Positions 3,307-45,854 of a stretch of 64,000 nucleotides of DNA are shown one piece after another. A program made the position numbers and the translations under genes. Source of the DNA: Pseudomonadota bacterium (GTDB taxonomy: Bacteria; Bdellovibrionota_B; Oligoflexia; Oligoflexales; CAIYRB01); the NCBI GenBank assembly GCA_031416315.1, contig JANOTL010000109.1:101929-165928 (forward strand), written 5' to 3'. How positions within the stretch are numbered: the stretch's first letter is position 1; the number at the start of each line of letters is the position of its first letter. The notes under the pieces were generated by a model, which was given only the letters and a program-made list of their open reading frames with translations, had not been told where the DNA came from and searched no databases.

Positions 3307-3346
3307 ACGGACTCCCGTCGTCAACGCCCCGGTCCGAGGTCAGTGG

Positions 3347-4606: not shown

Positions 4607-5361
4607 TGCGGTCCGTCGTTCTCGGTTTGGCACTGACCTTCGCGCCCGCGGCCCTGGCCGCAGGCGGCAAATGGACGAAAGAAGAGGCGAAAAAAGTCCT
4701 GAAGACGGCGGAGGAGATCCGCTCGCTCGACAAAGCCGAGATCGCGGTCGACCTGCAGACGGTGCAGGATAAACGGGAAACCGTTTATGACCTGAAGATC
4801 GTCCGCTCGTCCGAGCGGCGCGCCTACATCGACTTCCTCGGGCCTAAGGAGGAAAGGGGCCGGAAGATGCTCGCGAAGGGCATGAGCTACTGGTCCACCT
4901 TCCCCGACTCGAAGCGCGTCGTCGCGATCTCGCGGCGCGAGATGATCGGCAACAGCGCCTTCGCGCTCGCCGACATCTTCCAGATGGACGCCGACGAGGA
5001 CTACGACCCGACGATCACGGGCGAGGAAGAGGTCGACGACGGGGCCGGGAAGAAGGTGAAGACCCTGAAGCTCGACATGAAGGGGAAGCACGACGACGCG
5101 CCCTATGCGCGGATCGAGTACTGGGTGGAGAGCACGGGGTTTTTCCCGGTGCGCGCCCGGTTTTACGGCTCGTCCGGGAAGCATCTGAAGACGATGACGG
5201 TCGAGACGCGCAAGGACATCGCGGGGCGGGACCGGCCGGAGATCACCAAGATGGTGGACGAGGTGACGAAGGGTCACGTCTCGTGGTGGAAGACGAAGTC
5301 GATGGTGGCGGCGGAGCCGCCGGATGCGATGTTCTCGAAGGATTATTTGAAGGGGCGGTAG
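4603..5361 (+). CDS. Outer-membrane lipoprotein-sorting protein (LolA-like)
   Basis: Signal peptide; FLGPKEERGRKML, PYARIEYWV, FYGSSGKHLKTM; ATGA-coupled to the permease. Confidence 0.8.
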   Translation: MMRSVVLGLALTFAPAALAAGGKWTKEEAKKVLKTAEEIRSLDKAEIAVDLQTVQDKRETVYDLKIVRSSERRAYIDFLGPKEERGRKMLAKGMSYWSTFPDSKRVVAISRREMIGNSAFALADIFQMDADEDYDPTITGEEEVDDGAGKKVKTLKLDMKGKHDDAPYARIEYWVESTGFFPVRARFYGSSGKHLKTMTVETRKDIAGRDRPEITKMVDEVTKGHVSWWKTKSMVAAEPPDAMFSKDYLKGR

Positions 5362-5427: not shown

Positions 5428-6291
5428 TCAACGCGACTTCTTGCCCGCACCAGCCGACCCCGACCCCGACCCACTTCCTGCTCCTGCCGCACTCGCCACC
5501 GGCTTCATCTTCAGCCGCACCACGATCCTCCGATTCATCGCCTGATTGCTCAAGATCGCAAACCCACGATCGTCCCGGTCCGGCACCAAGGGCTGAAAGT
5601 GCGCCAACCCCGCCGCCCGCATCCGGTGCGGGTCGATCCCCATCTTCGCCAAGACGCGCACGACGCTCGTCGCACGCTCCGACGACAGCTCCCAGTTGTC
5701 GAAGAACTTGGAGTTCTTGATCGGGTCGGAGTCGGTGTGGCCCTCGACCTCGAGCAGCGCGTCGCCCGGCATCGTCTGCAGCTGCCGTGCGACCGCCTCG
5801 ATCGCCGCCATGCCGTCGGCGGTAAGCTTAGCCAGACCGGGGACGAACATGTTGCTCGTGAGCATGACGATCTCGATCGTGTTCGGCTCGGTCTGGCCGA
5901 GGGCGAAGACGGCATCCAGATTCAGGGACGAGGTCGGGTCCTGCGGCGTCGGGGCGCGGTTCTCGTCGGCATCGAGCGCGGCTTTGTCGGCCGTCGTGTT
6001 CGAGCCGACTAGCATCTTCAGCCGCGCCAGCACCTTCTGCGGCTCGTCGTACTTGCCGGTCGACTTCTCGACCTGAAAGAAGAGGATGAAAAAGCACATG
6101 AGCAAGGTGACCATGTCGGCATAGCTGAGGAGCCAGGGCTCGCCGCCCTCTTCTTCCTCGTGATGTCCGCCGGCATGATGGTGACCGCCGCCGTGACCCT
6201 TCGCATGCGCGGCGTCATGACCGTCTTCGGCCTCGCCATCGAAGCTCATGCCCTTGGCGCTCAGCTTCTGGGCGTGGCCGTCACGCTGCAT
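5428..6291 (-). CDS. motB: MotB/PomB-like stator subunit with OmpA-like peptidoglycan-binding domain
   Basis: WLLSYADMVTLLMCFFILFF with the conserved Asp; EVEGHTD, NWELSSERA, NRR. Confidence 0.9.
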   Translation of the reverse strand: MQRDGHAQKLSAKGMSFDGEAEDGHDAAHAKGHGGGHHHAGGHHEEEEGGEPWLLSYADMVTLLMCFFILFFQVEKSTGKYDEPQKVLARLKMLVGSNTTADKAALDADENRAPTPQDPTSSLNLDAVFALGQTEPNTIEIVMLTSNMFVPGLAKLTADGMAAIEAVARQLQTMPGDALLEVEGHTDSDPIKNSKFFDNWELSSERATSVVRVLAKMGIDPHRMRAAGLAHFQPLVPDRDDRGFAILSNQAMNRRIVVRLKMKPVASAAGAGSGSGSGSAGAGKKSR

Positions 6292-7105
6292 TGCCCTTCA
6301 CCTCGCCGCCGCCGCCGCCGGCTCCGCCGGCTCCGCCGGTGACCTTGCCGCGCGCGCTCGGCGGAATGTGACTCAAGAGCATCTCGCGCACCAGGATTCC
6401 TGGCGTCTTGCGCTTGATCAGGAGGATGCCCTCGACGATCATGAGGCGCTTTGCGGCCGTCTTCTGCGTGCGGAACATCAGGTTGTCGGCTACGGGCAGG
6501 ATGAGGACGTTGGCGGTGATGACGCCGTAGAGCGTCGCCGCGAGGGCGACCGACATCGCGGGGCCGATCTTCTCGCCGGCGCCTTCCTGGCCGAGCGTCG
6601 ACAAGAGCGCGATCATGCCCATGACCGTGCCCATGAGGCCGGCGGCGGGCGGGTACTTGCCCAGGTTCTTGAACATTTTCATCTGATTGCCTTCGCGCTC
6701 TTTCTGCACTTCGATGCGGCGGCGAAGGATCGTCTCGATGGCGTCGGCCTCGAAGCCGCCGACGAGGAGGTCTATGGCGTCCTTTAGAAAGAGGTCGGTG
6801 ACCTTGCTCTTGAAGGCGGTGAGGCCTTGCATGTCGATCCGGGCCTGCTCGGCCATCTGCACGAGCTGCTCGACGATCTCTACGGAGTCGTCCTTCATCT
6901 TTTTCGTGATGACCCGGACCATCGGGAAGAAGGACTTCAGCTCGGTCGAGGGCACGGAGATGATGGCGATCGCGGCGGTGCCGATGAAGACGCAGAAGCC
7001 CCCGTGCGCGTCGAGAAAGCGCATCGGCTTGTCGGGGTCCGTCCAGACCGCCATGCCGACCATGAAAATAAGGGCTATGATGAACCCTATGCCGTTTGAG
7101 CTCAT
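6281..7105 (-). CDS. motA: MotA/PomA-like stator subunit
   Basis: YPPAAGLMGTVMGMI, IGPAMSVALAATLYG, FLKDAIDLLVGG, IVEGILLI; overlaps motB. Confidence 0.9.
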   Translation of the reverse strand: MSSNGIGFIIALIFMVGMAVWTDPDKPMRFLDAHGGFCVFIGTAAIAIISVPSTELKSFFPMVRVITKKMKDDSVEIVEQLVQMAEQARIDMQGLTAFKSKVTDLFLKDAIDLLVGGFEADAIETILRRRIEVQKEREGNQMKMFKNLGKYPPAAGLMGTVMGMIALLSTLGQEGAGEKIGPAMSVALAATLYGVITANVLILPVADNLMFRTQKTAAKRLMIVEGILLIKRKTPGILVREMLLSHIPPSARGKVTGGAGGAGGGGGEVKGNAA

Positions 7106-7326
7106 TTACGTTCGTCTTCGTCTTTGGGTTTCGGGAGCGCGCGCGCGGCGGCTTTGAGGGCGCCGCCGAGGCCGCCTAGGCCGAAGGCCTCCTTGCCGTC
7201 GCTCAGGAGATCGAGGCGGAGCTTGCAGGTCTCGACGAAGCGCAGGAACTCGCGCCGAACCTCCTGCTCGAGGCTCGCTTTGAGCTCCTCGGCCTGCTTC
7301 ACGAAATTGGGGGGGCTCTGGTTCAT
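7102..7326 (-). CDS. Small helical hypothetical protein (74 aa)
   Basis: Fills the gap between the FliG-like gene and motA; 4-bp overlap with the motA start. Confidence 0.65.
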   Translation of the reverse strand: MNQSPPNFVKQAEELKASLEQEVRREFLRFVETCKLRLDLLSDGKEAFGLGGLGGALKAAARALPKPKDEDERK

Positions 7327-7338
7327 GCGGTGCTCGGG

Positions 7339-9546
7339 TTAGGCGACGGCGCGCGGAGTTTTCGGCGTGTCGTCGAGGAGACCCTCGTCTTTGAGACGAA
7401 GAAGGTAGGTCGAGATTTGGCGTTGGAGCGCGAGCGACTGCTTCTCGTTCCGCTTCTTGTAGAAGGTCTTGGCGTCGAGGAGCTTGAGCTCGTCCACGAC
7501 GGTCGCGGCTTTGACCTCGGGCAGGGCCTTGATCACCGCTTGGCGCACGGGCTCTGCGGCGGCGAAGATCAGCATGGCGATCTGCTCGTTGGCGCGCTCG
7601 CCGAAGATCTCCATGAGCATCTCCTTCGGCAGGTTCTGGACCGCGTCGAAGGCGACGTAGTGCTTGGCGAAGTCTTTGCGCACGTCGTCTTTGCGCCCGA
7701 TCTCGTCGAGGAGAAGCTTCTGGTCCTCGTCGCCGAGGGACTCGGCGAGACGGCCGAGATAGCGCGCGCCGTCGACGAGGCCGCCAGTCTCCTTGGTCGC
7801 CTCCGCCTTGGCCTTGAGCTTCGGCAGCTCCGCGAAGAGCTTCTCGAGATCCGCAGGCGTCGCGGCGCCGAGCTCGACCACCGCGGTCATGAGCGCCTTC
7901 TTCATGGTCTCGTCGCCCGAGGCCTCGACCATCTTCTTCACGCGCACGGGCGAGAAGCAGGCGAGAAACGCAGGACGCAAGGGCTTAGCGAGCTCGCTGG
8001 TGATGCGGGCCAGCTCGGCGTTGCCGAGGCGCGCGAGCCAGGCGACGTCGGTGAGCTTTAGGATCGGCGAGCCGCCGAACTCCTCGACCGCGATGCGGCC
8101 GTAGAACTCCTGGAGCGCCGCGTTGCGCGAAGCCTTCGCTTCTTGAATGGCGCCCGGACGCGCCAGGTGGCGCTTCAGCCGCTCCATGTGCGCAGCGGTC
8201 AGACCTTTTACGAGCTCGGCCGTGGCTTCTCGGGAAAGCGCCAATAGCAGCGCCGAAGCTAGAGGCAAGGACTGATCGGAGTCGACCAGGTCCTGCATTT
8301 CCCGATACAGAGCAAAGCTCCGCTCTTTCGCCAGAATCTCGATCTTGTCCTGCACGGCGACGAGAAATTCCTCGAGGCGCGCGCGCTCGCCTTCATCCGT
8401 TGGCATCGAGTTGCCCGCGGCTCCGCCGGCTCCGTGCCCTTGCCCTTGCCCGGCCTCGCCCTTGGACTCCTCGTCCCGGTGCCCTTCCGCCGCCGCCTTC
8501 AGCCTGTCCGCCCTCGCCGCTTTTTCCATTTCACGCTGCGCCTCGACGTGCGCGGTCGCAGCCTCTTTCATGCCGCTACCGATGCTGGCGAAGCCGCCGG
8601 CCAAGGCCGTCATGCCCTTTTTGAACGCGCCCGAGCCCATGACCAAGCCGAGGATCACGGCGACCGCGAGAATGATGCCGAAGAGGAGGACTTGGATCTT
8701 GGCGAGGCCGCCCAGGGCGCCCCCGTCGTCCTTCGCCGCCCCGGCGCCGGCTTCGGTCGCGGCCGACGCGGAGCCCGAGCCTGAGCCGCTCTCGGCCCTC
8801 TTCCTTTCTTCCGCTACGGCGGCCTCGACGGCCAGAAGTTTCGTCTCGAGCTCGCGCACCTTGGCTTCGCGCGTCGATAGCTCACGGGTCTGCTCGAGGC
8901 GGTTGCGCTGGATCTCGAGGTCCCTTTTGGCGACCTCGAGCTTCATCCGCTCTGACTCGAGGTCGAACTTCGCCTTGTCGCTGCTTGCGCCGTTCAAGGC
9001 CGCGGCCTGCGCGCGCTGCGCCTCGCTGCGAAGCTGGTCGGGGATCGACTCGGTGACCAAAGTCTCCGTGCGGACCGTCAGGGTGCGCGAGGCGCCGTCG
9101 ACGGCGAGCTTCTTGCCGACGGCCTGCTCGAGGATCTTGCGCTTCGCCTCAGGGATCCTCCGGTCGAAGGTGATCTCGGCGCGGATGGCCTTGATCTTGC
9201 GGCGGACGACGCCCGCGGAGCCCTCGGCCATGCTCGAAAGCTTTGCCGGGTCGACCTTCAGCGTCAGGTAGGGAAGGCTCGCGGAGCCGCCGCCCGCGCT
9301 CTCGCCGGCTGCGACGGTGCCTTCGTCGAGCTCGACGTCGGCGACGACGAAAAACTCCTCGGGCGCCAACTGGCCGCGCAGGAGCGTCGTGATCTCGCTC
9401 TCGATCTGCCTTTGTCCGGCGAGCCGCTCGGCCGGATCCACGTCCGCACGCGCCGCGCTCGTCGCGAGGAGCGCGACGATGACGGCGATCGCTGCGAGGC
9501 GCAGCGCAACCAACGGCGACGTTGGCGTGGAGTATGGGAAGCGCAA
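7339..9546 (-). CDS. Membrane-anchored FliF-like/FliG fusion protein (signal peptide, ring-like domain, coiled coil, TM, FliG M and C domains)
   Basis: TTG at 9546 after GGAG (start uncertain); signal ...ATSAARA; TM IQVLLFGIILAVAVILGLVMG; C-terminus GG...HYVAFDAV...KAATVVDEL...LQRQISTYLLRLKDEG resembles FliG-C. Confidence 0.8.
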   Translation of the reverse strand: MRFPYSTPTSPLVALRLAAIAVIVALLATSAARADVDPAERLAGQRQIESEITTLLRGQLAPEEFFVVADVELDEGTVAAGESAGGGSASLPYLTLKVDPAKLSSMAEGSAGVVRRKIKAIRAEITFDRRIPEAKRKILEQAVGKKLAVDGASRTLTVRTETLVTESIPDQLRSEAQRAQAAALNGASSDKAKFDLESERMKLEVAKRDLEIQRNRLEQTRELSTREAKVRELETKLLAVEAAVAEERKRAESGSGSGSASAATEAGAGAAKDDGGALGGLAKIQVLLFGIILAVAVILGLVMGSGAFKKGMTALAGGFASIGSGMKEAATAHVEAQREMEKAARADRLKAAAEGHRDEESKGEAGQGQGHGAGGAAGNSMPTDEGERARLEEFLVAVQDKIEILAKERSFALYREMQDLVDSDQSLPLASALLLALSREATAELVKGLTAAHMERLKRHLARPGAIQEAKASRNAALQEFYGRIAVEEFGGSPILKLTDVAWLARLGNAELARITSELAKPLRPAFLACFSPVRVKKMVEASGDETMKKALMTAVVELGAATPADLEKLFAELPKLKAKAEATKETGGLVDGARYLGRLAESLGDEDQKLLLDEIGRKDDVRKDFAKHYVAFDAVQNLPKEMLMEIFGERANEQIAMLIFAAAEPVRQAVIKALPEVKAATVVDELKLLDAKTFYKKRNEKQSLALQRQISTYLLRLKDEGLLDDTPKTPRAVA

Positions 9547-9595
9547 GGGGAGGGACTCCGGGCGGCGGACGCCGCACGTATGGGGGCTTAGTCTT

Positions 9596-9625
9596 ACGAT
9601 AATAAACCCAGCCACATGTCGTCAA
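9596..9625 (-). promoter_or_regulatory. Possible sigma70 promoter for the fusion-motAB unit
   Basis: TTGACG-N18-TATCGT (or N15-TATTAT) in an AT-rich gap. Confidence 0.35.
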
Positions 9626-9635
9626 CTAACTGTAA

Positions 9636-10451
9636 CTAATGGGTATTTTTTGCCGGGTCGGCGACGGCGGCCGTGGCTTTGGCGGGAACGAGGAGAACGT
9701 AGAAGCTGCCGACCTTTTCCGGGCCCTTGCCGTCGCCTCGATCGATGGCGACGCTGTAGGCGCCCTCGGCATAGACGGGCGCGACGAAGTGCGTGCCGGT
9801 CGCCAAGCCGACCAAAGGCAGGCGCTCGCCGGTGCTTTCGACGCCTAGATGGATCTTGTACTTCTCCTTGGCTTTCGTCGGCGGGAACCAAAGGATGGGG
9901 AGCGCGACCGGGAACTTGTCGGTGATGACGATGGCACCCTTCTTCGGGTGCAGGATCGTCGTCGCGATCGGCGCCATCGAAGGCAGGTCTTTGCCGCTCC
10001 CGCCTTCGGGCTTGGGCTCTTTCGGCGGCTTTTTGTCGGCTTTGGCGGTGAGGTAGATGGCGTTGATGCGCTCCCATGCGCTTTTGAACGCGACGCCGAC
10101 CGTCGGCGACGCCTTTGCGCCCTGCGCCAGGCCGTCGGCGTAAACGCTGGTGAGATCGACCTCGCGTAGGACGTCGACGGTGAGGCGGCAAATCAGGCTG
10201 GAATCGGCGTTTAGACTCATCTCGCGAACGTTGCGGCCGGGTTCTTTGCGGGCCAGGAGGAGGCTGCCGCTGGTGAGCGTCTGCACCAGGCTGTCCTCCG
10301 GGAGGTCGACGCCGGGCTTCAATTTCAGCCATTCCGCGGCGCGGTCGCTCCAGACGGCGAAGTTGCCGTCGATGGCCAACACCTCGAAGGTGACGGCCGC
10401 GCGCGCCGGGCTCGCGGCGAAGAGGCAGAGGAGAAAGAGGACGCGGATCAT
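9636..10451 (-). CDS. Secreted protein with FecR-like N-terminal region and beta-rich C-terminal domain
   Basis: Signal peptide ...ASPARA; EVLAIDGNFAV...WLKLKPGVDLPEDSLVQT resembles the FecR-type beta motif; 4-bp overlap with the phosphatase. Confidence 0.6.
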   Translation of the reverse strand: MIRVLFLLCLFAASPARAAVTFEVLAIDGNFAVWSDRAAEWLKLKPGVDLPEDSLVQTLTSGSLLLARKEPGRNVREMSLNADSSLICRLTVDVLREVDLTSVYADGLAQGAKASPTVGVAFKSAWERINAIYLTAKADKKPPKEPKPEGGSGKDLPSMAPIATTILHPKKGAIVITDKFPVALPILWFPPTKAKEKYKIHLGVESTGERLPLVGLATGTHFVAPVYAEGAYSVAIDRGDGKGPEKVGSFYVLLVPAKATAAVADPAKNTH

Positions 10452-12334
10452 GCGGCCGCCGCCGGCGTCTCGTCTTCGCCGTCCGGCTTCGCCTCGGGGC
10501 TTGCCGACGCGACGCGACGCTCGAGGAGCAGGATGCAGAGGTCGTCTCCTGCCGGCGCGCCGCTCAGGTAGCTCGTCCAGCTGGAAACGATCGCATCGAG
10601 GACCTGCTCGCCGTCACGGCTCGCGCCTTCAGTGAACATCCGCCGCAAGCGGCGGCTGCCGTAGATGCTGCCGCCGCCGGTCGGGCGGCCTTCGATCAGG
10701 CCGTCGGTGTAGAGGAGGAGACGAAACGATGCCGGCACCTTGATGGTCGCGACGCCGAACTTGGGCTCCGCCTCGACGCCGAGCGGCATCGAGCGCAGCT
10801 TCACGAGCTCCACCGAAGCTTCGACGCCGTGGCCCGATTCCAGCAAGGGGAAAGGATGGCCGGCGTTGGTGACGACGAGGACGTTCTCCGCCTTGCGCCA
10901 AGTGATGATCTGCATCGTGACGTGAATCTTGTCGAGCGCGAGGTTGCGCAGGCGATCGTTGACGGAGCTCATGAGCTCGATGGGCGCGATACCAACGGTC
11001 TCGACGCGCTCGTCGAAGAGGGCCGCGATGATGGCGGTGAACATCGAGGAGCCGACACCGTGGCCTGAGACGTCGGCGATCGCGACCGTGACGTCGCCCG
11101 AGGCCTCGTCGAAGTGGCAAGCGTACCAGTCGCCGGCGCATTCGTCGGCGGCTTGGTACCGCATCATGATCTTCAGCTCGGGATGGTCCGCGGGCAGGTT
11201 GGGGACGCGCAGGAAGGTGTCCTGCAGGCTCTTTGCGATGGCGAGCTCGTTCGCCATGCGGAGCTTTGCCATGCGGTCCTCCATCAACTTGCCGATCGCC
11301 TGGTCGCGGGAGGTCAGGCGTTGCGCCATCGTGCGGAAGGATTCGACGAGCGGGCCGAGCTCGCCGAAGCCTTTGTTGCGCGGCAAGCGTGAAAAGTCGC
11401 CGCGGCCGATGTGGACGGCCAGCTGCGACAGCTCGCGGATCGGGTGGAGGAGCATCGTGGCTGGCAGGGCGACGAGGGTCACGGCGCTGACGAGGAGGCC
11501 GAAGAGGATGAGAGAGAAACGCTTGCCGAGCTCCCAGACGACACCCAGGGCCTTGGCCTTGGAGGTTTCGGCGAAGAGCACCAAATTCGTCCCCGAAATT
11601 TCCAGGTAGAAGCCGTAGACCGGCCCAGCCTGGCCGCCCGGGATCTCGATCTGCGAGTTGGTGAGGTTCCGCTTCACGAAAGCCGCGACCAGCGGGCGCT
11701 GGGCGAACGTGGATTGGTTGATCTCGGGGGTGTTAGAATGAATGAGCAGCCCTGCGTGCGTCACCAGATAGAACTTCGAATGAGCGGCGCTGATCGCGCT
11801 GCCGCCCACCGCTCCCTTCTTGGTCATCCATCCGCCCACGTCCTCCTGCCAGAGGTAGAGCTTCTTGCCACTCAGAAAGGCTACGAAGGATTGATCGCCG
11901 TATCGAACGATCGTCCAGGTGTCGGGCCGCGGCGAAAGCTTCAGGCCGAGCTCGAACCACCTGAGTTTTTTCGGCAGGCTCCCGGCCTCGCGCTCGATCG
12001 GCGAAGTCGGTGTGGCGCCGAGCTTGTAGGTCGCGGTCGCGCCGCCGGTCGGGCCTTGATCGAGGCGCGGCACGCAGCTCTCGGCGAGGCGTGTGCGCGC
12101 GGCGTTCGCCTGGCGCTCGAGGTCGAGGTAGAGAATCGCCCAGGTGTCGCGCAGCTTGTTCGCGTAGAGGATCTCGAAAGCGGCGACGCCGGCGAGCGTG
12201 CCGGCGACGACAACGGCGACGGCGACCACCGCCACGATCAAGCGCGTGAGCGTCCAGAAAGCCACGAAACGCGTCTTCAAACGCGCGACGAGCTTTTTCT
12301 TGGGCGTTCCGGGTTTGAGCGCGGGAGTGCTCAC
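10448..12334 (-). CDS. Membrane sensor PP2C/SpoIIE (RsbU-like) phosphatase with HAMP domain
   Basis: 2 TMs, HAMP (PIRELSQLA...ELGPLVESFRTMA), AGDWY, IADVSGHG, NAGHP, YTDGL, DDLC. Confidence 0.92.
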   Translation of the reverse strand: MSTPALKPGTPKKKLVARLKTRFVAFWTLTRLIVAVVAVAVVVAGTLAGVAAFEILYANKLRDTWAILYLDLERQANAARTRLAESCVPRLDQGPTGGATATYKLGATPTSPIEREAGSLPKKLRWFELGLKLSPRPDTWTIVRYGDQSFVAFLSGKKLYLWQEDVGGWMTKKGAVGGSAISAAHSKFYLVTHAGLLIHSNTPEINQSTFAQRPLVAAFVKRNLTNSQIEIPGGQAGPVYGFYLEISGTNLVLFAETSKAKALGVVWELGKRFSLILFGLLVSAVTLVALPATMLLHPIRELSQLAVHIGRGDFSRLPRNKGFGELGPLVESFRTMAQRLTSRDQAIGKLMEDRMAKLRMANELAIAKSLQDTFLRVPNLPADHPELKIMMRYQAADECAGDWYACHFDEASGDVTVAIADVSGHGVGSSMFTAIIAALFDERVETVGIAPIELMSSVNDRLRNLALDKIHVTMQIITWRKAENVLVVTNAGHPFPLLESGHGVEASVELVKLRSMPLGVEAEPKFGVATIKVPASFRLLLYTDGLIEGRPTGGGSIYGSRRLRRMFTEGASRDGEQVLDAIVSSWTSYLSGAPAGDDLCILLLERRVASASPEAKPDGEDETPAAAA

Positions 12335-12339
12335 TCGAT

Positions 12340-12594
12340 TCAGTCTTCAGCGTCCGTGGCGAACGTTTGGTCCAGATCTTTGTGCAGCTCGCGCAGAAGC
12401 CTTTGCTTCGCGACGATGCGCGCGAGCTGGCGGTGCGTCGTCAGGCGCGCGGCTACGTTCGGCGGCATCGGCGCTTTCTCGGCACGGAGCTCGTCCAAAA
12501 GACGGGCGGCGACGAGGCATTCCTCGCGCAGCGACTCGACACGGGCGCGCAGCGCGCGCTGGGGGGAGACCTTGCGGCTGATCAATTTGAGCAT
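12340..12594 (-). CDS. Small helical hypothetical protein (84 aa)
   Basis: ATG at 12594 (MLKLISRKV...), ends 5 nt before the phosphatase start. Confidence 0.55.
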   Translation of the reverse strand: MLKLISRKVSPQRALRARVESLREECLVAARLLDELRAEKAPMPPNVAARLTTHRQLARIVAKQRLLRELHKDLDQTFATDAED

Positions 12595-12694
12595 GGCGTT
12601 TCGTCCTATGAAACTTCGGCCTGGCAGTCCTTGCCCGGCAGCTTCGTTTCGGCACGATCTGCACGGCGGTTGATTCGACTCGGAAAATTGTGGC

Positions 12695-13141
12695 TTGGCG
12701 CGTGCGGCAAAGGTCGCGGAAAAGGCGAAGGAGAACGCGGTGAAAGACGACAAGGACGCGGTCACGCGGATGTTCGGCAGCGAGCGCGTGAAGGGCCTGG
12801 GGTTCAGGCGCATCAAGCCCGATCTGAGCTTTGGCGTGTCGAAGCTGACCGACGTTTCGAGCTGGTTCGGAAGTGCCGCGATGCCGGCGCCGCCGGAGCC
12901 TTCGGGCGCGACGAGCGACGCGTCTGCGGACGCTCAGGGCGACGCCGGCAGCGGCGTGAGCTTCGGCCTCACCGCCTGGCGCGACGCGCTCTCTTCCGCG
13001 GATCGTGACCTCGCCGACGCGATCGGACTGGCGCTCGGCGCGCTCGACGACGCGGAGCGCGAGCTGCTCTTCTCCGGCTGCGAGCCGGACGAGCGCCGGA
13101 CCCTCGAGGCTTGCTTCAGCTTGGCCGAGGCGAAGCCGTGA
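12695..13141 (+). CDS. Hypothetical protein
   Basis: First ORF of a divergent overlapping operon; GTGA overlap with the next gene; start uncertain. Confidence 0.55.
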   Translation: MARAAKVAEKAKENAVKDDKDAVTRMFGSERVKGLGFRRIKPDLSFGVSKLTDVSSWFGSAAMPAPPEPSGATSDASADAQGDAGSGVSFGLTAWRDALSSADRDLADAIGLALGALDDAERELLFSGCEPDERRTLEACFSLAEAKP

Positions 13142-13674
13142 GCCTCCGCGCCGCCTTCGCTTTGAGCTTGGTCGTCTTGGGCTGTCGGACATCCGGGACG
13201 CTGGACGCACCGGTGCCGACGACGGCCGTGAGCCTGGGCCAGGACCTGAAGCCGGCGGCGCGCCTGGGACGCCTCCCGATCCCGGTCGACACCGACGACG
13301 TGATGCAACGTTATGCGTTGCAGCCCATCGGCGCCGCCACCGAATATCTGATCGTCGTCACGCCGGACAAGGTCGACGGCAAGATCACCGTACCGCTCGG
13401 CAACGGAAGTAGCAGCGCGGACGCCGCCGTCGTCTACAACGAGTATCTGAACCAGCTGCTGCGCGCGCATCGTCATCTTCTGCGCGGCGAGGTGCGCGAC
13501 GCCATGGTCGTGCTCGACCGGCTCGACGAGCGCTTCGATCAGAGTTACGGCGGCCTCGTCCTGCGCGGAAACCTGCATTACCTCCTCGGGAACGCCGGCG
13601 AGGCCGCGCGGCAGTTCGAGCTGGCGCGACGGATCTTCCCGGGCGCGAAGGCGCTCGAGGGGGTGAAGAGATGA
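13138..13674 (+). CDS. Lipoprotein with C-terminal TPR
   Basis: MSLRAAFALSLVVLGC lipobox; LRGNLHYLLGNAGEAARQFELARRIFP is TPR-like. Confidence 0.75.
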   Translation: MSLRAAFALSLVVLGCRTSGTLDAPVPTTAVSLGQDLKPAARLGRLPIPVDTDDVMQRYALQPIGAATEYLIVVTPDKVDGKITVPLGNGSSSADAAVVYNEYLNQLLRAHRHLLRGEVRDAMVVLDRLDERFDQSYGGLVLRGNLHYLLGNAGEAARQFELARRIFPGAKALEGVKR

Positions 13675-14279
13675 GGGCTTTTTTCGCGGGACTATTGCTG
13701 CTCGCAGGCTGCTCCACCAGCTACGACATCCGCACCAAGCCGGACGGGGTGAAGCTCTACGTCGGCGACAAGCAGATGGGGACGACGCCCTTTGCCCTGA
13801 GCTCCGGCGACGCGCCGAAGTCCGAGGCCGGCGGCGTCCTGGCGCGCCTCGAGATCGAGGGCTACCAGCGCGTCTTCGTGTGGCTGCCCGACGACGGCAA
13901 GCGCTACGACCTCACGTTCAACATGACGCCGTTCTTCCGCCGGGCGCGCGACGAGTCGGTGGTCGGCGATCTCGAGATCGATCGCATCGACCTCTACCGA
14001 CTGAGCGAGCGGCTCCTCGACCTGCAGACGGATCTTCTCGCTGGGACGCAAACGGCGAAAAACCCGGCGGCTGAGGAGTTGAAGCGCCTCATCGACGCGA
14101 ACCCGACGATGGGGTCGATGCATTTTCTGGAGGCGCTCAGGCTCTTGCGCGAAGGCAAGAAGGACGAGGGCAAGCTGGTCCTGAAGACGGCCCTGCGCTT
14201 CGCGCCGAGCGAGTTCGACTTCCTATCCTTGATGAACGAGCTCGGAGGCGACGCGAATGCGGCTAAGCCTACGCCTTAG
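13671..14279 (+). CDS. PEGA-domain lipoprotein with TPR-like C-terminus
   Basis: LAGC lipobox; IRTKPDGVKLYVGDKQMGTTP...EGYQ. Confidence 0.8.
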   Translation: MRAFFAGLLLLAGCSTSYDIRTKPDGVKLYVGDKQMGTTPFALSSGDAPKSEAGGVLARLEIEGYQRVFVWLPDDGKRYDLTFNMTPFFRRARDESVVGDLEIDRIDLYRLSERLLDLQTDLLAGTQTAKNPAAEELKRLIDANPTMGSMHFLEALRLLREGKKDEGKLVLKTALRFAPSEFDFLSLMNELGGDANAAKPTP

Positions 14280-14901
14280 CGCGGTCCTCGCGGCCGGCGC
14301 GGCGGCTTTGGTCGCGGGCGCCCCGGCCCTGTCCTTGCCGAACCAAGAGATCACCGTCGGGGTTCCGTCCGGGAACTACACGAAGACGACGATCTCGGAG
14401 GTGTATAAGGGCACGGCGCCTTACGGCTTCGCGACGGAGTACGGGATCTTCCTCGACCCTAAGCTCGCGATCGCCGGGCAATTCGAGCTCAACCTGGAGC
14501 CGACGAAGCAGAGCGCCGTCCTCCTCGGCGGCGCTGCCGGTTTGAAGTACTACGTGGTCGGCGGCGACAACCGCATCCTCTCCGACACGTACGTGAAGGG
14601 CGTCGGGCGGCCGAAGCTGAATGCGTTCCTGGTGGTCGGCTTCGGCGGCAAGCAGTACGACTTCAGCGTCCCGGAGAAGGTGGAGGACGACAAGAAGGCC
14701 GGATCCATCTTCGAGAAAGACGGCAAGGATCTGGCGAAGGGCTCGGTCGTCGGCCTGTCGGTCGGGCTCGGGGCGCAGTATCCGATCTTCTTCGATCTGC
14801 AGCCTGGATTTCGGGTGCAGATGTTCAAGTCGTTTTCCGCGGAGAATCAGCCGGATATTACGGTGATGGCGGTGTGGTTGTCGTGTGGGTTTGGGCTTTA
14901 G
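14257..14901 (+). CDS. Small outer-membrane beta-barrel protein
   Basis: Signal peptide, alternating amphipathic strands (GAAGLKYY, LSVGLGAQYP), C-terminal VWLSCGFGL. Confidence 0.7.
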   Translation: MRLSLRLSAVLAAGAAALVAGAPALSLPNQEITVGVPSGNYTKTTISEVYKGTAPYGFATEYGIFLDPKLAIAGQFELNLEPTKQSAVLLGGAAGLKYYVVGGDNRILSDTYVKGVGRPKLNAFLVVGFGGKQYDFSVPEKVEDDKKAGSIFEKDGKDLAKGSVVGLSVGLGAQYPIFFDLQPGFRVQMFKSFSAENQPDITVMAVWLSCGFGL

Positions 14902-14961
14902 AGGGAGTCTAAAAAGGCGCGGGACCGTAAACCTACGTCCCGCGCCTTTTTAGACACCCTC
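14901..14961. mobile_element. 61-bp MITE/REP-like hairpin flanked by TTA direct repeats; probable bidirectional terminator
   Basis: GAGGG(A/T)GTCTAAAAAGGCGCGGGAC arms with one mismatch, 11-nt loop; TTA at 14898-14900 and 14962-14964; second copy near 63830. Confidence 0.7.
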
Positions 14962-16146: not shown

Positions 16147-16197
16147 GCGAGAATTCCCAGGAAAGGGGAGAGACGGAAGAGTAAATGTTTCCTGGGG

Positions 16198-39174: not shown

Positions 39175-39181
39175 GCCGGGT

Positions 39182-39208
39182 TCTTCGGCAAACCCGGAGA
39201 AAGGTTTA
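39182..39208 (-). promoter_or_regulatory. Sigma28 (FliA)-like promoter of the giant gene
   Basis: TAAA-N15-GCCGAAGA ending 7 nt before ATG. Confidence 0.7.
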
Positions 39209-39304
39209 CATAAACCAGGTTTCCCCTGGATCGCGCTAGGAATTCTGGCCACTTGCCGACGGGCAGAATGCCGTAATCTTCGGACTGCAAGTTTCCGGCG
39301 GGGC

Positions 39305-39332
39305 TCAACTAGGACGGGCTTCTTGCCGAAGC
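39305..39332 (+). promoter_or_regulatory. Sigma28-like promoter of the FN3 lipoprotein
   Basis: TCAA-N16-GCCGAAGC ending 8 nt before ATG. Confidence 0.55.
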
Positions 39333-39340
39333 GTCTAGTG

Positions 39341-40297
39341 ATGAAACTACGATGCCAAACATTTCTCTGGGCAACGGCAGCGCTGGTTTTCGCCTGCGGC
39401 GGCGGTGGAGCGCCTCAAGAAGCCGGCTCCAAGCAGATTCGCTCGCAGGTTGCCACGTTCGCCGGCGCCAAGACGCTGGAGAAATTGCCGGACGGTGCCT
39501 GGATCGTGCGGTGGACGCCGGTCGAGGCGGACGGCATCCAGTACTCGGTCTTCAAGGCGCCGCAAGGTCAGCCCATGGATTACAATTCGCCTTTCGTTTC
39601 TGTGCCGACCGACTACTTCTCGTATCGGCCAAAGAACGTCTACACCGAGCGTTCGATCTGCTTCGTCGTGCGCGTCACCAACGTGGTTGGTGACACCAAC
39701 ATCAATTCTCTGTGCACGATGGAGGAGCCGCTCTCCTTCAGCGGCGCCTCTTCGCTCGAGCGCTTGGCCGACGGCGCGTATACTCTCAAATGGCCCGCGC
39801 TCTTGGTCGAGGGTGTGATCTTCGCGGTCTATGCCCGGCAGGACGAGGACGAGTTCAACTTCGAGCAGGCCAGCTTCGACGGCATCCGCGAGAACTTCTT
39901 CAGCCAATTGAAACAGGTCGAGCGCGGCACGCGCTTCTGCTTCGTCGTGCGCTACCAGCATCCGGATCTGCCCACCGACGTGAACAACACCGAGCTATGC
40001 ACCGAGGTCGAGGCGCCGATTGAGTTCGAGGGCATCAAGAACCGCGAGGTGCTCGACGGTCGCACGGTCAAGTTGAACTGGAACTTGGCCGACCCTGAGA
40101 TCGTCAAAAGCTACCGCGTGTATCAGGGCGCGGACTTCAAGGAGCTCGTCACGACCGTGACGGACGCGACCGGCGAAGCCAAGGTCGAGGGGCTCGTTCC
40201 GGGTCGACAGTATAGTTTCGGCATCCGCGCGGTCGACCAGTTCGGGCGCGAGGACCGGAACATCGTGATCCGCTCGGTCGTCATGCCGCCGGAATAA
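39341..40297 (+). CDS. FN3-like lipoprotein, paralog of the giant protein's N-terminal head
   Basis: LVFAC lipobox; DGAWIVRW...CFVVR...LCT twice; GIRAVDQFGREDRN versus GVRAFDKYGREDQN in the giant. Confidence 0.85.
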   Translation: MKLRCQTFLWATAALVFACGGGGAPQEAGSKQIRSQVATFAGAKTLEKLPDGAWIVRWTPVEADGIQYSVFKAPQGQPMDYNSPFVSVPTDYFSYRPKNVYTERSICFVVRVTNVVGDTNINSLCTMEEPLSFSGASSLERLADGAYTLKWPALLVEGVIFAVYARQDEDEFNFEQASFDGIRENFFSQLKQVERGTRFCFVVRYQHPDLPTDVNNTELCTEVEAPIEFEGIKNREVLDGRTVKLNWNLADPEIVKSYRVYQGADFKELVTTVTDATGEAKVEGLVPGRQYSFGIRAVDQFGREDRNIVIRSVVMPPE

Positions 40298-40300
40298 CGC

Positions 40301-41551
40301 TCATCTGACCTTGAGAAAGCTCGCGAGCGTGAGCTCGTAGCTCCGCGAGGCCAAGACGTTCACGCCGCGCGGCGTGTCCCGCACGGTGACGGTCGACCAG
40401 AACGGGACGGGCGCCAGCATCATCACCGAGAGCGAGCCCTCGACGTAAATCGCGAGCGCGTCCGTGCCGTCGCTGAGCGCGGAGTAGTTTCCGGAAACCT
40501 GTCCCGAATAGCGATCGGTGAAGTGCCGCTCGACGCCACCTTTGAGGGTCGTGGTCACGATCCCGAGCCGAAATCCGGCGCCGCCGCCGAAACGTACGTC
40601 GTCGCCGGGGTCGAGCGCTAGGTCGTAGGTGCGCTCTTTCGCGGCGAGCTCTTCGCCAGCAAGCGGCAGGCGCTCGCGCTTCCTTGCGCCAAGATTTTTC
40701 ACGTAGCCTAGCTCGCCCAAGAGGAAAAAACGCGACAGCGCGAGCTGCGGCTCGATGGCAAGGCCGGCGCCGTAGTATCCCTTGCCGAAGCCGAAGTCGG
40801 TGAGCTCGTCCGGATCGTCGACGGCGCCGGTCGGCGTCGTCAAAGTCGCCGTAATCGGCATCGACCAGCGCAGCTTGCGCGCGAGACGGCCCTCGACGCT
40901 CGTGCGCGCGCCGAGACGCAGGTCGCCTACGCCTTCATTCTCCCAGCGGTCGAGCGAGGCGTAGCCTAGATCTTTTTCCAGCGAAGCGCGCACCGCCTTC
41001 GCGTCGAGCGCGGCGGCGCGGTCGAGTCCCGACTTCAACTCGTCGTAAGCTAGATCCCCGAGGCGGTCTTTGATCGCGCCCGCATTGTTCGTCCCGGTGA
41101 GCGCGAGCTTGCTTTCGACCTTGGCGCGGATCCAAGGAATGCCGGCGAAGAGCGTGAGGCGCGGCGTGATCCCGAAGGCGAAGCCCAAGCTCGTCGCCTG
41201 CACGTCGGCGCGCACTTCGCCCCGTAGAGTGCCGAGGTCCAAGCCGTCGACGAGTCCCGCGGCTCCAGGATGCTCCGTCTCGAAGCGCGACAGCTCGGAA
41301 GCGAGCCGCTTGAGGTCCGCGCCGCCGTGACCTCGGGCGAGCTCAGCACCGCGAAAGCTCTTGTCGAAGCGCGATCCCAGGGGCGTCAGAAGGCCCTTCG
41401 CGTCGAATGCCTCGGACTGTTCAGCGTAGCCGAGGTATCCGAGCTGGAAGAGCGCGATGCCGCGGGGCAAGACGTGCTGGGCCTCGGCTCGATGCGAGAT
41501 CGTGGCCATAAGAAGGAGAATGAGCGGAAAGAGGGCGGTCGAGCGTCTCAT
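40301..41551 (-). CDS. Putative outer-membrane beta-barrel protein
   Basis: Signal ...HRAEA; GVGDLRLGAR, TLTTPTG, GFGKG motifs typical of MetA/CoxB-type barrels; amphipathic strands. Confidence 0.65.
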   Translation of the reverse strand: MRRSTALFPLILLLMATISHRAEAQHVLPRGIALFQLGYLGYAEQSEAFDAKGLLTPLGSRFDKSFRGAELARGHGGADLKRLASELSRFETEHPGAAGLVDGLDLGTLRGEVRADVQATSLGFAFGITPRLTLFAGIPWIRAKVESKLALTGTNNAGAIKDRLGDLAYDELKSGLDRAAALDAKAVRASLEKDLGYASLDRWENEGVGDLRLGARTSVEGRLARKLRWSMPITATLTTPTGAVDDPDELTDFGFGKGYYGAGLAIEPQLALSRFFLLGELGYVKNLGARKRERLPLAGEELAAKERTYDLALDPGDDVRFGGGAGFRLGIVTTTLKGGVERHFTDRYSGQVSGNYSALSDGTDALAIYVEGSLSVMMLAPVPFWSTVTVRDTPRGVNVLASRSYELTLASFLKVR

Positions 41552-43083
41552 TCGGCGCCGTCCCATCTCTCGACGGCGTCTTGCAAGGTCTTCACCAGGT
41601 CTTCGGTCCACGGCGCCGCGACGAGCCCTTGCGTCGCCGTCAAGCCTCGCGCGAGCCAGAGCGCCTCGCTCGCGTCCATGGTCTTCGTGACGCCGCGCGC
41701 GGCGACGCCGTGCACGAGCCCCTGCACGATCGAGCGCAGATGCGGCGAGGATAGGATCTCGTGCTCGGCATCGGCCAACGCCGTCAGCGTCCGGCCGGTG
41801 AGCCTTGGCTCGTCGACGACGAGGCCGGCGCTCGGGCCCGCCGTCACGTGTTTCGAGATCAGCTGCGAGATCGTCGCGCGTAGCGCGTCCTGGAGTGAGC
41901 CGCGTGCGCCTTCGAGGTCCAAGGTTGTTTCTGGATCGAGGCCCGCCTTGTCGATGTTTTTTAGGGCGCGCGCCCAAGCCGTCAGCGCCTCGGCAAGCAG
42001 AACGAGGTCCTCGAGCGAGGCTTTCGGCAGCGAGTGCGTCTTCAGATCGAGGTACTCGCGCGGCAGAAGGGTCGACATCGTCTTCAGAAACACCAACGGC
42101 AAGGACTTCGCGTCCGCGGGGACGAGCTTGCCGACGGCGCTCTCCATCCGGTCTTCGCGCAGCTTTTGGAAGGCGGCTGCGGCCGCGGCCCAAAGCCGCG
42201 CGGCCTCGGCGAGGGGCGGCAGCTCGGTCGACGTAAGGCTCCACCGCTCGCCGCCTTGCAGCGCCATGCCGAGTAGGCGGTGACGTGCGGAGATCGCGGG
42301 GAGCTCGACGCGCATGGTGCCGCCGAAAAAGCGCTTCGCCTTCGTCTGTTTGCGCGGATCGTAGGCGCCGGCCAGGCCCGCGCCGTTGTCGAGGTCGCGC
42401 GACATGCCGCCATAGGGTGCCTCGAGCCCTGCCAGATAACTCCACTCCATCAAGGCGCGGAGCGTCTCGACGTTCTGCGTCCCGCCGGACTTTGCGGCGT
42501 CGGCGAAGACGAAGCGCCAGCGCGCGGCTTGCGCGTCGAGCCGTACTTCGCCCTCGGCCTCGCCCTCAAGCCGGAGGAAGCCCTCGAAGCTGAAGCGCGT
42601 CGCGCCGCCGCCCAGGCGCTCCGCGACGCCGGCGCGGATCTCTTCGGTGATTTTCTCGTCGCTGGCGAAGTTGTCGAGCAGGGCGTCGCCGAGAAAATTC
42701 GGCAAGGCCTGAATGCGGGCCAGCTCAGGCTTGACCTTGATCTTCTCGCGCACCGAAGGCACCAGCGCCTCAGGTAAGGCGCCCGGGCTCGTGTTCAAGC
42801 GCGTGAGCCAGGCAGCGCGGCGGCGTGGACACGCGTCGCAGTGAGCGAGCGCCTCGAGCTCGGCCGAAGGCGTCACCGGCGCGGTCAGCGCGAGGTTCGC
42901 CGGCAGCGACGGCGTCCCTGCGAAATGCACGAAGGGCTCCGCTTCGTCCGCGGGCTTGACGCCTTCGCCGAGCTTCGGGCCTTTGTCCGAGGCCTTCTTC
43001 TTCTCGCCTTCTTCGCCACGCGTCGTCGCCTGGCAGCCGAAGGCCGCGAGAATCGCGAGGATGAAGGGGACGAGTCGGATCAT
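41548..43083 (-). CDS. Hypothetical lipoprotein with CxxC (HCDAC)
   Basis: MIRLVPFILAILAAFGC lipobox; 4-bp overlap with the barrel gene. Confidence 0.7.
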   Translation of the reverse strand: MIRLVPFILAILAAFGCQATTRGEEGEKKKASDKGPKLGEGVKPADEAEPFVHFAGTPSLPANLALTAPVTPSAELEALAHCDACPRRRAAWLTRLNTSPGALPEALVPSVREKIKVKPELARIQALPNFLGDALLDNFASDEKITEEIRAGVAERLGGGATRFSFEGFLRLEGEAEGEVRLDAQAARWRFVFADAAKSGGTQNVETLRALMEWSYLAGLEAPYGGMSRDLDNGAGLAGAYDPRKQTKAKRFFGGTMRVELPAISARHRLLGMALQGGERWSLTSTELPPLAEAARLWAAAAAAFQKLREDRMESAVGKLVPADAKSLPLVFLKTMSTLLPREYLDLKTHSLPKASLEDLVLLAEALTAWARALKNIDKAGLDPETTLDLEGARGSLQDALRATISQLISKHVTAGPSAGLVVDEPRLTGRTLTALADAEHEILSSPHLRSIVQGLVHGVAARGVTKTMDASEALWLARGLTATQGLVAAPWTEDLVKTLQDAVERWDGAE

Positions 43084-45683: not shown

Positions 45684-45854
45684 GGCAAAGTCGAGCTAGA
45701 CAAGCGTATTCGGCTGCCTCTACACTGGGTTTTCCGAGTCTGCACGGGCACTTCGAGTCTCACAGAGATATCACCTCGGGTCCTTCATATTTGAGAAGGC
45801 CCCTCAACATCCCCTTCCTTGCGCCCAAGGAAGAAAGCCAGGAGCGATTGCCGG

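Follow-up and report, generated by a model that had tools for sequence, protein, structure and literature searches.

What is a flagellar-type motor doing beside the gene of a giant lipoprotein? This question is raised by the 64-kb window analysed here (the whole stretch of DNA, ~65% G+C, from contig JANOTL010000109.1 of assembly GCA_031416315.1; its genome, that of an uncultured bacterium of Oligoflexales type, was coded G000). The original prediction had read ~38 kb of the window (5428–43083) as one locus in which a motor, lipoproteins and outer-membrane (OM) barrels form a trans-envelope machine for secreting, moving or rotating a giant adhesin, with adjacency as the only visible link. The present analysis indicates that a MotA/MotB-like stator, a FliF/FliG-like fusion protein (FliGfus) and their OM partners beside the giant gene likely mark an undescribed ion-driven machine moving or deploying the giant adhesin. 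That motor module and giant have any joint function was considered quite probable, and a probability of roughly 40% was given to the more specific reading that the module is a trans-envelope ion-driven motor mechanically coupled to the giant lipoprotein, moving or tensioning it at the cell surface. The gene map was based on the listing of open reading frames (ORFs) and on Pfam and NCBIfam family scans of the window proteins. The surveys took in metagenome contigs, 95 genomes belonging to the order and the 131 of the phylum, and partner genes were mapped on the contigs fetched by running tblastn with every protein of the window.

The MotA protein matched the Pfam family MotA_ExbB (E 4.7e-23). 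Its best solved relatives were flagellar MotA and PomA, aligned over nearly the full length (E 4.6e-31 to 2e-27), and these proteins made up all the top ten matches in the PDB. Among the NCBIfam models, PomA was matched at E 6.6e-40 as against E 7.8e-6 for TolQ. MotB matched MotB_plug (E 3.3e-13) and OmpA (E 4.8e-13), and its best NCBIfam match was MotD/MotB, far below the equivalog cut-offs. The pair fell short of the named flagellar stator equivalogs of NCBIfam, scoring 137 and 126 bits where 341 and 283 are required. MotB has one transmembrane (TM) helix (residues 53–72) with SYAD at its start, in the string LLSYADMVTLL, the Asp of which we take to be the ion-binding residue, and it is 60% identical to its ortholog on contig C109 of genome G002. 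The two genes are not adjacent to flagellar genes. By the family, PDB and NCBIfam comparisons taken together, MotA and MotB are predicted to be a flagellar-type stator. A MotA tree of 14 rows placed the window MotA in clade I together with those of G028 and G020:C369 (support 99/99), and the MotA beside the giant of G020 in clade II together with G007, G026 and others (support 82/94).

The partner of the stator, FliGfus, would have 735 amino acids (aa) if started like the database copy (at 9546). It contains two hydrophobic segments: a signal or anchor sequence at 31–56, followed by a periplasmic domain at ~61–183 and a coiled coil at 212–276, and a TM segment at 299–332, followed by a disordered linker and by FliG-like N, M and C domains at 408–743. 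The Pfam families FliG_N (E 6.5e-6, 27.1 bits against a gathering threshold of 25) and FliG_C (E 1.1e-4) were matched. In the AlphaFold2 (AF2) model, built from an alignment of eight rows (mean predicted local distance difference test, pLDDT, 64.6; predicted template modelling score, pTM, 0.31), the helical FliG part had a pLDDT of ~80, the coiled coil formed a 65-residue helix, and the periplasmic domain had an alpha-beta-beta-alpha-beta order. When the model was compared with the PDB by Foldseek, the 12 best matches were all FliG (E 9e-7 to 1e-3), several of them over the full length, including 3hjl (E 9e-7). The matches to FliF were weak (8ftf, ring-building motif 3, RBM3, probability 0.99, E 0.18; 9a67, probability 0.97), and Pfam YscJ_FliF was not matched.

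No EHPQ or HPQ string is present in the FliGfus sequence, the EHPQ(R) motif of the FliG middle domain being one that we take to act in FliM binding, and no FliM or FliN was found in the window by the ORF listing and family scans. The torque helix is kept: in the family-profile alignment, the helix ..RAATV.DEL of FliGfus corresponds to the Thermotoga maritima FliG torque helix KRAAALLKDEL, and Arg/Lys and Asp-Glu are conserved in all eight aligned members ([KR]AATV.DEL). Which residues of this helix matter was taken partly from the available sections of PMC12505986 and partly from general background. From the model, FliGfus is predicted to be a membrane-anchored complete FliG fold, and its small FliF-like periplasmic head suggests a ring-building part. 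A search of 1.84 billion representative proteins with the family profile gave 304 matches at E ≤ 1e-3, 100 at 1e-10 and 52 at 1e-30, of which ~30 were full-length proteins of 640–740 aa. The family is rare but real.

To our knowledge, MotAB and FliG have been described only within the flagellum, and an ordinary flagellar gene set is present elsewhere in G000: FlhA, FliF, FliH, FliI and rod genes, a canonical FliG on contig C50 (PF01706, E 3.6e-41), a second one on C16, and three other MotAB pairs. The window module is a second system. No flagellar gene was found in the window from its ORF listing and translations. FlhA was present in 78 of the 95 genomes as against six with the motor module, and it was not found in the module carrier G010 (91% complete). 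BLAST with the FliG-like genes of relatives matched only FliGfus in G000; that FliGfus is the sole FliG of the genome was rejected, the Pfam search having found the genes on C50 and C16. Contig C67 (39107–43461) carries fliF, a 452-aa FliH-like gene and fliI in this order, with no fliG between fliF and fliH. In family f5 (G039:C1:739631–742381; also G015, G030 and G054) a soluble FliG-like gene of ~330 aa is closest to the cytoplasmic half of FliGfus (E ~1e-60 to the profile). These genes were rejected as ordinary flagellar FliG, as FlhA was found in none of the four genomes. The G039 gene is directly preceded by a gene for a 552-aa lipoprotein and has no MotAB within 10 kb.

Counted from the ATG before its lipobox, the giant lipoprotein has 7,658 residues and is the largest ORF of the genome, exceeding the next one (3,424 codons) by a factor of two; ~20 ORFs of the genome have at least 1,600 codons. 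The lipobox is followed by three FN3-like domains, ~55 immunoglobulin (Ig)-like repeats of 110–125 aa, each with a short Cys loop, and a C-terminal RCC1-type propeller. The repeats gave weak matches to the Pfam families Cadherin_5 and Big_9, and the C-terminus matched WD40_RLD (E 2.4e-60), RCC1_2 (E 6.1e-47, in five stretches) and RCC1 (E 5.7e-34). The propeller is kept in the G026 giant ortholog (41% identity). The protein includes 165 Cys, among them 58 C-x(2-8)-C loops at repeat spacing, which fits the presence of a dedicated thiol oxidase next door, the DsbA-like protein with its CQNC motif. The Pfam scan recognised no type 1 secretion system (T1SS) or type 9 secretion system (T9SS) signal or family in the giant. 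Next to it lies its FN3 paralog, which matches fn3 (E 6.2e-7) and is 33% identical to the first ~310 residues of the giant (E 5.1e-46).

With the first 975 residues of the giant as query, strong collinear orthologs were found in G002 (54% identity), G026 (45%, an ORF of 6,729 aa) and G020 (41%), and in no others among the 95 genomes; six more genomes had weak matches at the level of FN3 (E 1e-8 to 1e-28). An ortholog of the FN3 paralog adjoins the giant in all three. Upstream of the clade I module on G020:C369 (L016) there is a partial ORF of at least 634 aa at 5763–7667 (-), with a C..DGTC loop like those of the giant repeats; BLAST did not match it to the giant at E 1e-5, nor did it fall into any Pfam family.

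The gene composition of the module was compared between genomes. Full-length relatives of FliGfus were present in G010, G020 (two copies), G026 and G028 of the order, in G095 of another order of the phylum, and on one metagenome contig, L073. A locus search by peptide patterns gave only the four known loci in genome contigs and one new locus in metagenome contigs, and a search for homologous proteins gave just four close ones. FliGfus was accompanied by TPR, PEGA, barrel, MotA or MotB genes in G002, G010, G020 (both copies), G026, G028, G095 and L073. The gene order was FliGfus-TPR-PEGA-MotA-MotB, with the phosphatase farther on, in G028, FliGfus-TPR-PEGA-MotA on G020:C369, MotB-DsbA-like-x-TPR-PEGA-barrel on G002:C109, and TPR-like lipoprotein-MotA-MotB-FliGfus in G095; on G026:C125 there were FliGfus, MotA and TPR-PEGA-barrel. 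The conserved core includes MotA/MotB, FliGfus, the TPR and PEGA lipoproteins, the small barrel and the HAMP-PP2C phosphatase.

Synteny and phylogenetic profiling, which the original prediction had named as a check, supplied a link between motor and giant beyond adjacency: strong giant orthologs were found only in genomes with the module. All four genomes with a strong giant (G000, G002, G020 and G026) are among the six module genomes, for which the naive chance is 15 in 3.18 million, a figure that overstates the case because of kinship and possible joint travel of the genes. The giant lies beside genes of the motor module in three of these four genomes, in three different gene orders. On G020:C156 the order is giant (-), paralog (+), MotA (+) and MotB (+) up to the contig end, and G002:C14 has giant (-), paralog (+) and phosphatase (+, 45% identity) as far as the contig end, with the remainder of the motor block on C109. 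In G000 the motor block is at the opposite end of the giant in comparison with the order in G002 and G020. The motors beside the giant belong to two MotA clades, clade I in G000 and clade II in G020. The DsbA-like gene adjoins the giant in two genomes, G000 and G026, and is set within the motor block in a third, G002.

A fifth genome, G007, has a paralogous module with its own giant FN3 lipoprotein in line. On a single strand of contig C92, a 714-aa FliG fusion, MotA, MotB, a HAMP-SpoIIE phosphatase (33% identity) and a p271-like gene are followed by a lipoprotein of 1,940 aa, in which FN3 was matched seven times. The genes overlap by 4–70 nt up to the p271-like gene, and a gap of 332 nt precedes the 1,940-aa lipoprotein. 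A TPR lipoprotein and a 213-aa barrel-like gene are divergent from them.

The other parts of the module had fewer recognisable features. The phosphatase matched SpoIIE (E 7.2e-35) and HAMP (E 4.2e-8), and it has TM helices at 22–58 and 272–299 flanking a periplasmic domain, followed by HAMP and then the PP2C/SpoIIE domain; a weak likeness to SiaA (E 2.4e-17) was far below the NCBIfam cut-off. Its homologs were found beside the paralog and giant in G002 and beside MotB in G007, and also in G028, G052:C195, G056:C80 and G027:C28. The lipobox Cys is invariant in the alignments of both the TPR and the PEGA-like lipoprotein. The TPR lipoprotein follows FliGfus or precedes PEGA in G002, G010, G020, G026, G028 and L073. 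The PEGA-like lipoprotein, with a Pfam PEGA match at E 0.006 and a helical C-terminal half, had orthologs within the order only in G000, G002, G020 (two copies), G026 and G028. The small barrel was modelled by AF2 as all-beta, with ~9 strands after a signal helix (pLDDT 57), and its ESM Atlas neighbours carry OMP_b-brl (score 0.97); orthologs follow PEGA in G002 and G026 and FliGfus on G020:C87. The DsbA-like protein has an N-terminal hydrophobic anchor (TM 3–25) and CQNC at 237, and matched Thioredoxin_4 under the cut-off (E 6.6e-4, 20.4 against 23.2 bits). Its homologs lie between MotB and TPR in G002 (40% identity) and beside the paralog and giant in G026 (27%); in G012 and G027 they stand directly upstream of divergent FliG fusions.

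The 271-aa protein (p271) had been called FecR-like, a label that was not confirmed: no Pfam or NCBIfam family was found and the ESM Atlas leads were weak (MtxA/DUF7354 0.91; FecR clusters 0.83–0.84). It has a signal-type hydrophobic N-terminus (residues 4–22). Homologs with 23% identity follow the phosphatase or MotB in G007 and on G056:C145, and p271 was not similar to the ORFs at the corresponding place in G028. Its membership in the system is uncertain.

Several divergent FliG fusions per genome were present in the phylum. A census of eight known loci in G012, G027, G052 and G056, covering the fetched stretches, found MotAB adjacent in four, a SpoIIE phosphatase in three and the DsbA-like gene directly upstream in two, both of one genus. 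An ORF of 1,000–1,200 aa was present in four of the eight loci, one with a paralog-like FN3 match, and an ORF of at least 1,000 aa in none of six canonical fliG loci, a small control. G000 itself includes a second, very divergent module at C136:28540–38814, where the gene of a 576-aa signal-peptide protein matching FliG_C at its C-terminus (E 1.1e-3) precedes that of a lipoprotein, and the opposite strand carries a MotA/MotB pair at a distance of 4.3 kb. An ORF of 855 codons with FliG_C (E 1.8e-8) was found at C130:71356–73899.

All the genes named by the original prediction were recovered (Table 1), and there are no housekeeping genes between them, as had been claimed. The contiguous genes form at least five transcription units on both strands rather than one, with strand switches at ~12.3–13.1 kb, 14.9 kb, 39.2 kb and 40.3 kb.

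Table 1. Coordinates, strand and basis of assignment of the genes of the locus within the 64-kb window.
Feature	Position	Strand	Basis
MotB-like stator B subunit, 287 aa	5428-6291	-	Pfam MotB_plug + OmpA
MotA-like stator A subunit, 274 aa, flagellar type (predicted)	6281-7105	-	Pfam MotA_ExbB
FliF/FliG-like fusion FliGfus, 758 aa (longest ORF)	7339-9615	-	Pfam FliG_N/FliG_C, AF2 model, Foldseek
Secreted 271-aa protein (p271)	9636-10451	-	signal-type N-terminus
HAMP+SpoIIE (PP2C) sensor phosphatase, 628 aa	10448-12334	-	Pfam
TPR lipoprotein, 187 aa, lipobox Cys25	13111-13674	+	Pfam TPR_14/TPR_2, weak
PEGA-like lipoprotein, 202 aa, lipobox Cys14	13671-14279	+	Pfam PEGA, weak
Small predicted outer-membrane beta-barrel, 214 aa	14257-14901	+	AF2 model (low confidence), Atlas neighbours
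DsbA-like thiol oxidoreductase, 394 aa	14962-16146	-	Thioredoxin_4 under cut-off, CQNC
Giant lipoprotein, 7,658 aa	16198-39174	-	single ORF, Pfam fn3/RCC1-type
FN3 lipoprotein, 318 aa, paralog of giant's N-terminus	39341-40297	+	Pfam fn3, BLAST
400-aa secreted protein	40301-41551	-	ORF listing
511-aa lipoprotein	41548-43083	-	ORF listing

The first unit reads phosphatase, p271, FliGfus, MotA and MotB, with a stop/start overlap between the phosphatase and p271 genes and an overlap of 11 nt between motA and motB. The second includes TPR, PEGA and the barrel, and the third the giant followed by the DsbA-like gene on the same strand at a spacing of 51 nt. The FN3 paralog stands alone as the fourth unit, divergent from the giant gene over a 166-nt spacer, and the fifth consists of the 511-aa lipoprotein followed by the 400-aa protein. 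In a scan of 5–17 kb, promoter and terminator sites were no more numerous than in shuffled sequences. The G+C content of third codon positions (GC3) was dropped as a gene caller, as it did not separate sense from antisense at 65% G+C. The 776-nt divergent spacer between the phosphatase and TPR genes (12340–13110) contains an ORF of 158 codons, the C-terminal half of which resembles a small coiled-coil protein. This 158-aa ORF, at 12340–12816 (-), was left out as doubtful, being without a family and without a homolog in the relatives; the spacer may hold a small gene or only a regulatory region.

The right-hand gene pair, a larger barrel (the 400-aa protein) and a last lipoprotein in the original prediction, does not belong to the system as had been supposed: it is an independent pair, found also in genomes without the motor or the giant. 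Homologs of the 511-aa lipoprotein were present in 23 of the 95 genomes, among which are none of the other five with the module. The 400-aa gene follows the lipoprotein gene in all five of the best loci examined (L056–L060), and in the window its start overlaps the lipoprotein stop. A second copy of the pair is present in G000 itself (C76:9692–12533). The pair consists of a lipoprotein of ~510–600 aa and a secreted protein of ~400 aa, without a known family. It is a unit unrelated to the system of motor and giant, and the right-hand edge of the system is therefore the end of the FN3 paralog at 40297.

Outside the locus, a block upstream of the motor genes at 987–5361 (+) was read from translations. 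It includes what we take, by likeness, to be an MBOAT/AlgI-like membrane acyltransferase (987–2372, +), its presumed 325-aa partner (2329–3306, +), presumably an FtsX/LolE-like permease (3347–4606, +), and a protein assumed to be LolA-like (~4603–5361, +). At 45819–46943 (+), 3 kb past the locus, there is a second thioredoxin/DsbA-like gene of lipoprotein type (374 aa), with CPFC read from its translation.

A mechanism by which the parts could work together was proposed. MotB would anchor MotA5B2 units to peptidoglycan, and ion flow would turn MotA against the torque helix of FliGfus, which would turn as a ring assembled by means of FliG stacking and of its FliF-like periplasmic domain. The periplasmic domain and the 65-residue coiled coil could reach the TPR and PEGA lipoproteins and the barrel, and these might be joined to the giant at its lipid-anchored FN3 base, or to the paralog. 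Within the periplasm, the DsbA-like enzyme would form the ~58 Cys loops of the giant, and the phosphatase, with its periplasmic sensor domain, would regulate or report the state of the machine, p271 perhaps sensing or controlling too. As the outcome, a long Ig-repeat fibre tipped by RCC1 would be moved or put under tension. In its full form, a flagellum-independent rotary nanomachine in which a natural FliF-FliG fusion ring spun by MotAB drives the 7,658-residue fibre through TPR, PEGA and barrel, the proposal is tentative and rather doubtful.

A number of points weigh against the coupling of motor and giant. In G026 the giant, paralog and DsbA-like gene are on C117 (60.6 kb) and the module is on another contig, C125 (52.8 kb), both sets being flanked on each side by 9–36 kb of other genes. 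No giant or paralog ortholog was found in the module carriers G010, G028 and G095, of which G010 and G028 are fragmented (460 and 790 contigs) and G095 is 94% complete; the motor therefore does not need this giant. The motor is thus not strictly bound to the giant, and this type of giant has so far been seen only in motor genomes. Large FN3-headed lipoproteins with 22–35% identity to the paralog are present in G012, G027, G037, G052 and G056, and in the fetched contigs they are adjacent to a motor only on G056:C80. An ORF of at least 1,500 aa was found in none of the eight divergent FliG-fusion loci, in the stretches fetched. Co-occurrence overstates independence, as these genomes are related to one another and the module may move between them as an island. 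Of the proteins themselves, FliG_C of FliGfus scored 22.8 bits in hmmscan, below the cut-off of 23.3, and 27.8 bits, above it, in the genome search; the periplasmic part of the model had low confidence (pLDDT 42–83) and the whole model the low pTM given above. A barrel of ~8–9 strands cannot itself pass a folded giant. The route by which force would reach the giant, and any contact between the two, are what we infer.

One rival explanation is that the motor module and the giant unit (giant, paralog and DsbA-like gene) are separate and only co-located in a variable, horizontally exchanged cell-surface island. Both sets are patchy across the families f1, f3, f10, f16 and f17, they are unlinked in G026, and the module occurs without the giant in three carriers; the same stretch of the window also holds the unrelated lipoprotein pair. 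With the ~20 large ORFs of the genome, the chance of such a neighbour is ~5% per locus as a rough estimate. Independent neighbours, however, would not readily account for the presence of all four giant genomes among the six with the module, for a neighbourhood kept through three gene orders and two MotA clades, for the different giant lipoprotein in the same strand block of the paralogous module of G007, or for the DsbA-like gene inside the motor block of G002, and the explanation was considered unlikely. If the two do work together, the motor could instead be an engine of export or deployment, energising the passage of the giant across or onto the outer membrane, or its unfurling, like SiiAB for SiiE (mode unknown) or GldLM for type IX secretion. 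The synteny speaks for this as much as for mechanical coupling. Folding and oxidation of the giant must take place in the periplasm, as its Cys loops and DsbA-like partner indicate, and it would need an energised step if surface-exposed, for which SiiAB is a precedent in the available part of 10.1101/641415. Against it, no translocon-sized OM protein is conserved with the module, the sole barrel having 214 aa. A lipobox is present in the giant, in which neither a signal nor a family of the T1SS or T9SS was recognised, and the complete FliG fold, with its torque helix conserved, is suggestive of continuous rotation, not of a TonB-like pull; such an engine appears rather improbable.

About equally improbable is a sensor of surface or load, in which the giant serves as a feeler, force on it alters the load between rotor and stator, and the HAMP-PP2C phosphatase relays this by partner-switching, with regulation and not motion as the output. 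The phosphatase is the most regular companion after MotAB, being found in the seven genomes or loci listed above (G000, G002, G007, G028, G052:C195, G056:C80 and G027:C28), and its weak likeness is to SiaA, a biofilm regulator phosphatase. A regulator beside a machine is common, however, and does not make the machine a sensor; the Pfam and NCBIfam scans found no anti-sigma antagonist or STAS partner at the locus, and the retained MotB plug, Asp and peptidoglycan anchor together with the FliG torque helix fit torque generation. The remaining alternative is that the module is an extra stator, rotor or scaffold set of the ordinary flagellum and the giant gene is unrelated. Flagellar accessories have precedents in the PflA/PflB/FlgP-type disks of other bacteria, the genome has a canonical flagellar set including FliG, FlhA is widespread in the order, and MotA and MotB are of flagellar type. 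The module nevertheless has a FliG fold of its own, fused to a membrane anchor and without EHPQ, and no flagellar gene in its window; it is far rarer than the flagellar genes and includes a carrier in which FlhA was not found, and the aflagellate family f5 still has related 330-aa FliG-like genes. An accessory role was considered very improbable.

Compared with known machines, the motor is close to the flagellar motor's core (MotA5B2 or PomA5B2, the FliF MS-ring and FliG). It shares the stator with plug, Asp and OmpA domain, a partner with a whole FliG fold and torque helix, and perhaps, from a low-confidence part of the model with weak FliF matches, the strand and helix order of a ring-building motif. 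It differs in having one chain for FliF and FliG, with a single TM on the C-terminal side, a cleavable-type N-terminus and no EHPQ, in lacking FliM/FliN, export gate, rod, hook and filament genes at the locus, and in its partners, which are the TPR and PEGA lipoproteins, a small barrel, a PP2C phosphatase and a giant lipoprotein. Engineered FliF-FliG fusions of Vibrio and Salmonella likewise unite both proteins in one polypeptide and, according to the available text of PMC10941966 and PMC11481574, form rings in membranes. As far as described there, they are full-length laboratory constructs, whereas FliGfus is natural, with its FliF-like part cut to one small domain and a coiled coil, in a non-flagellar context. 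No paper describing a naturally occurring FliG or FliF-FliG protein that is non-flagellar and has MotAB of its own was found in a full-text literature search. A paper on MotAB evolution sorts the homologs into flagellar ones and generic ion transporters, and the sections available (PMC12505986) do not mention such a module.

Among the gliding machines, GldLM/T9SS/SprB of Bacteroidota has an ion-driven inner-membrane motor, a periplasm-spanning part, OM lipoproteins and a giant repetitive adhesin moved for gliding, as outlined in the accessible parts of PMC8986121 and PMC7056307. It resembles the proposed working of the present system without homology: the stator here is MotAB and not GldL, the rotor is FliG-like and not GldM-like, and the giant is a lipoprotein without a match to the T9SS C-terminal domain. 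In the myxobacterial Agl-Glt machinery, a stator homolog energises a trans-envelope complex of TPR proteins, OM barrels and lipoproteins coupled to the lipoprotein adhesin CglB (PMC9946355 and PMC9120999, from the text at hand). Its AglRQS is of the TolQR type (PMC12505986, in the passages available). The likeness is that of a stator-driven envelope complex with TPR proteins, barrels, lipoproteins and a surface lipoprotein adhesin; the difference is in the stator, MotA here being PomA-like by the NCBIfam matches given above. We know of no FliG-like part in Agl-Glt. No Gld, Spr, T9SS, Agl or Glt family was found by Pfam and NCBIfam on any locus protein including the giant, the rest of the genome not having been searched for Gld or T9SS parts. 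Of the trans-envelope adhesin machine first proposed, the tie between motor and giant has thus gained support from synteny and co-occurrence, and the analogy to gliding machines stays conjectural.

In Salmonella SPI4 (see also PMC6272769), SiiAB is a MotAB-like, peptidoglycan-binding and proton-conducting pair beside the giant Ig-repeat adhesin SiiE, for the function of which it is needed; by the portions available, it assists the T1SS that secretes the giant adhesin (10.1101/641415). SiiE exits through type 1 secretion, and the present giant has an N-terminal lipobox and a FliG-like rotor beside it. Giant adhesins of the SiiE or LapA kind have a C-terminal secretion signal, whereas this one has a lipobox at its start and the RCC1 propeller at its other end, and the ORF listing and family scans found no ATP-binding cassette transporter (ABC), membrane fusion protein (MFP) or TolC-like outer-membrane factor (OMF) genes at the locus. 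The system appears to be outside every described kind of machine though built from known parts, its function being a prediction from sequence.

If the proposed mechanism is right, the module would represent a new class of envelope machine, in which the torque pair was kept and the export apparatus, rod, hook and filament were dropped, and which is tied to OM lipoproteins and giant adhesins. It would be a third independently evolved route, after Gld/SprB and Agl/Glt, by which ion flow is turned into motion of an adhesin on the cell surface, serving gliding or prey capture. As a living example of a flagellar rotor-stator core working without a flagellum, it would bear on the origin of the flagellar motor, and also on how diderm bacteria power events at their outer surface. 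It would further offer a first handle on the role of the many giant lipoproteins in bacteria of the predatory type.

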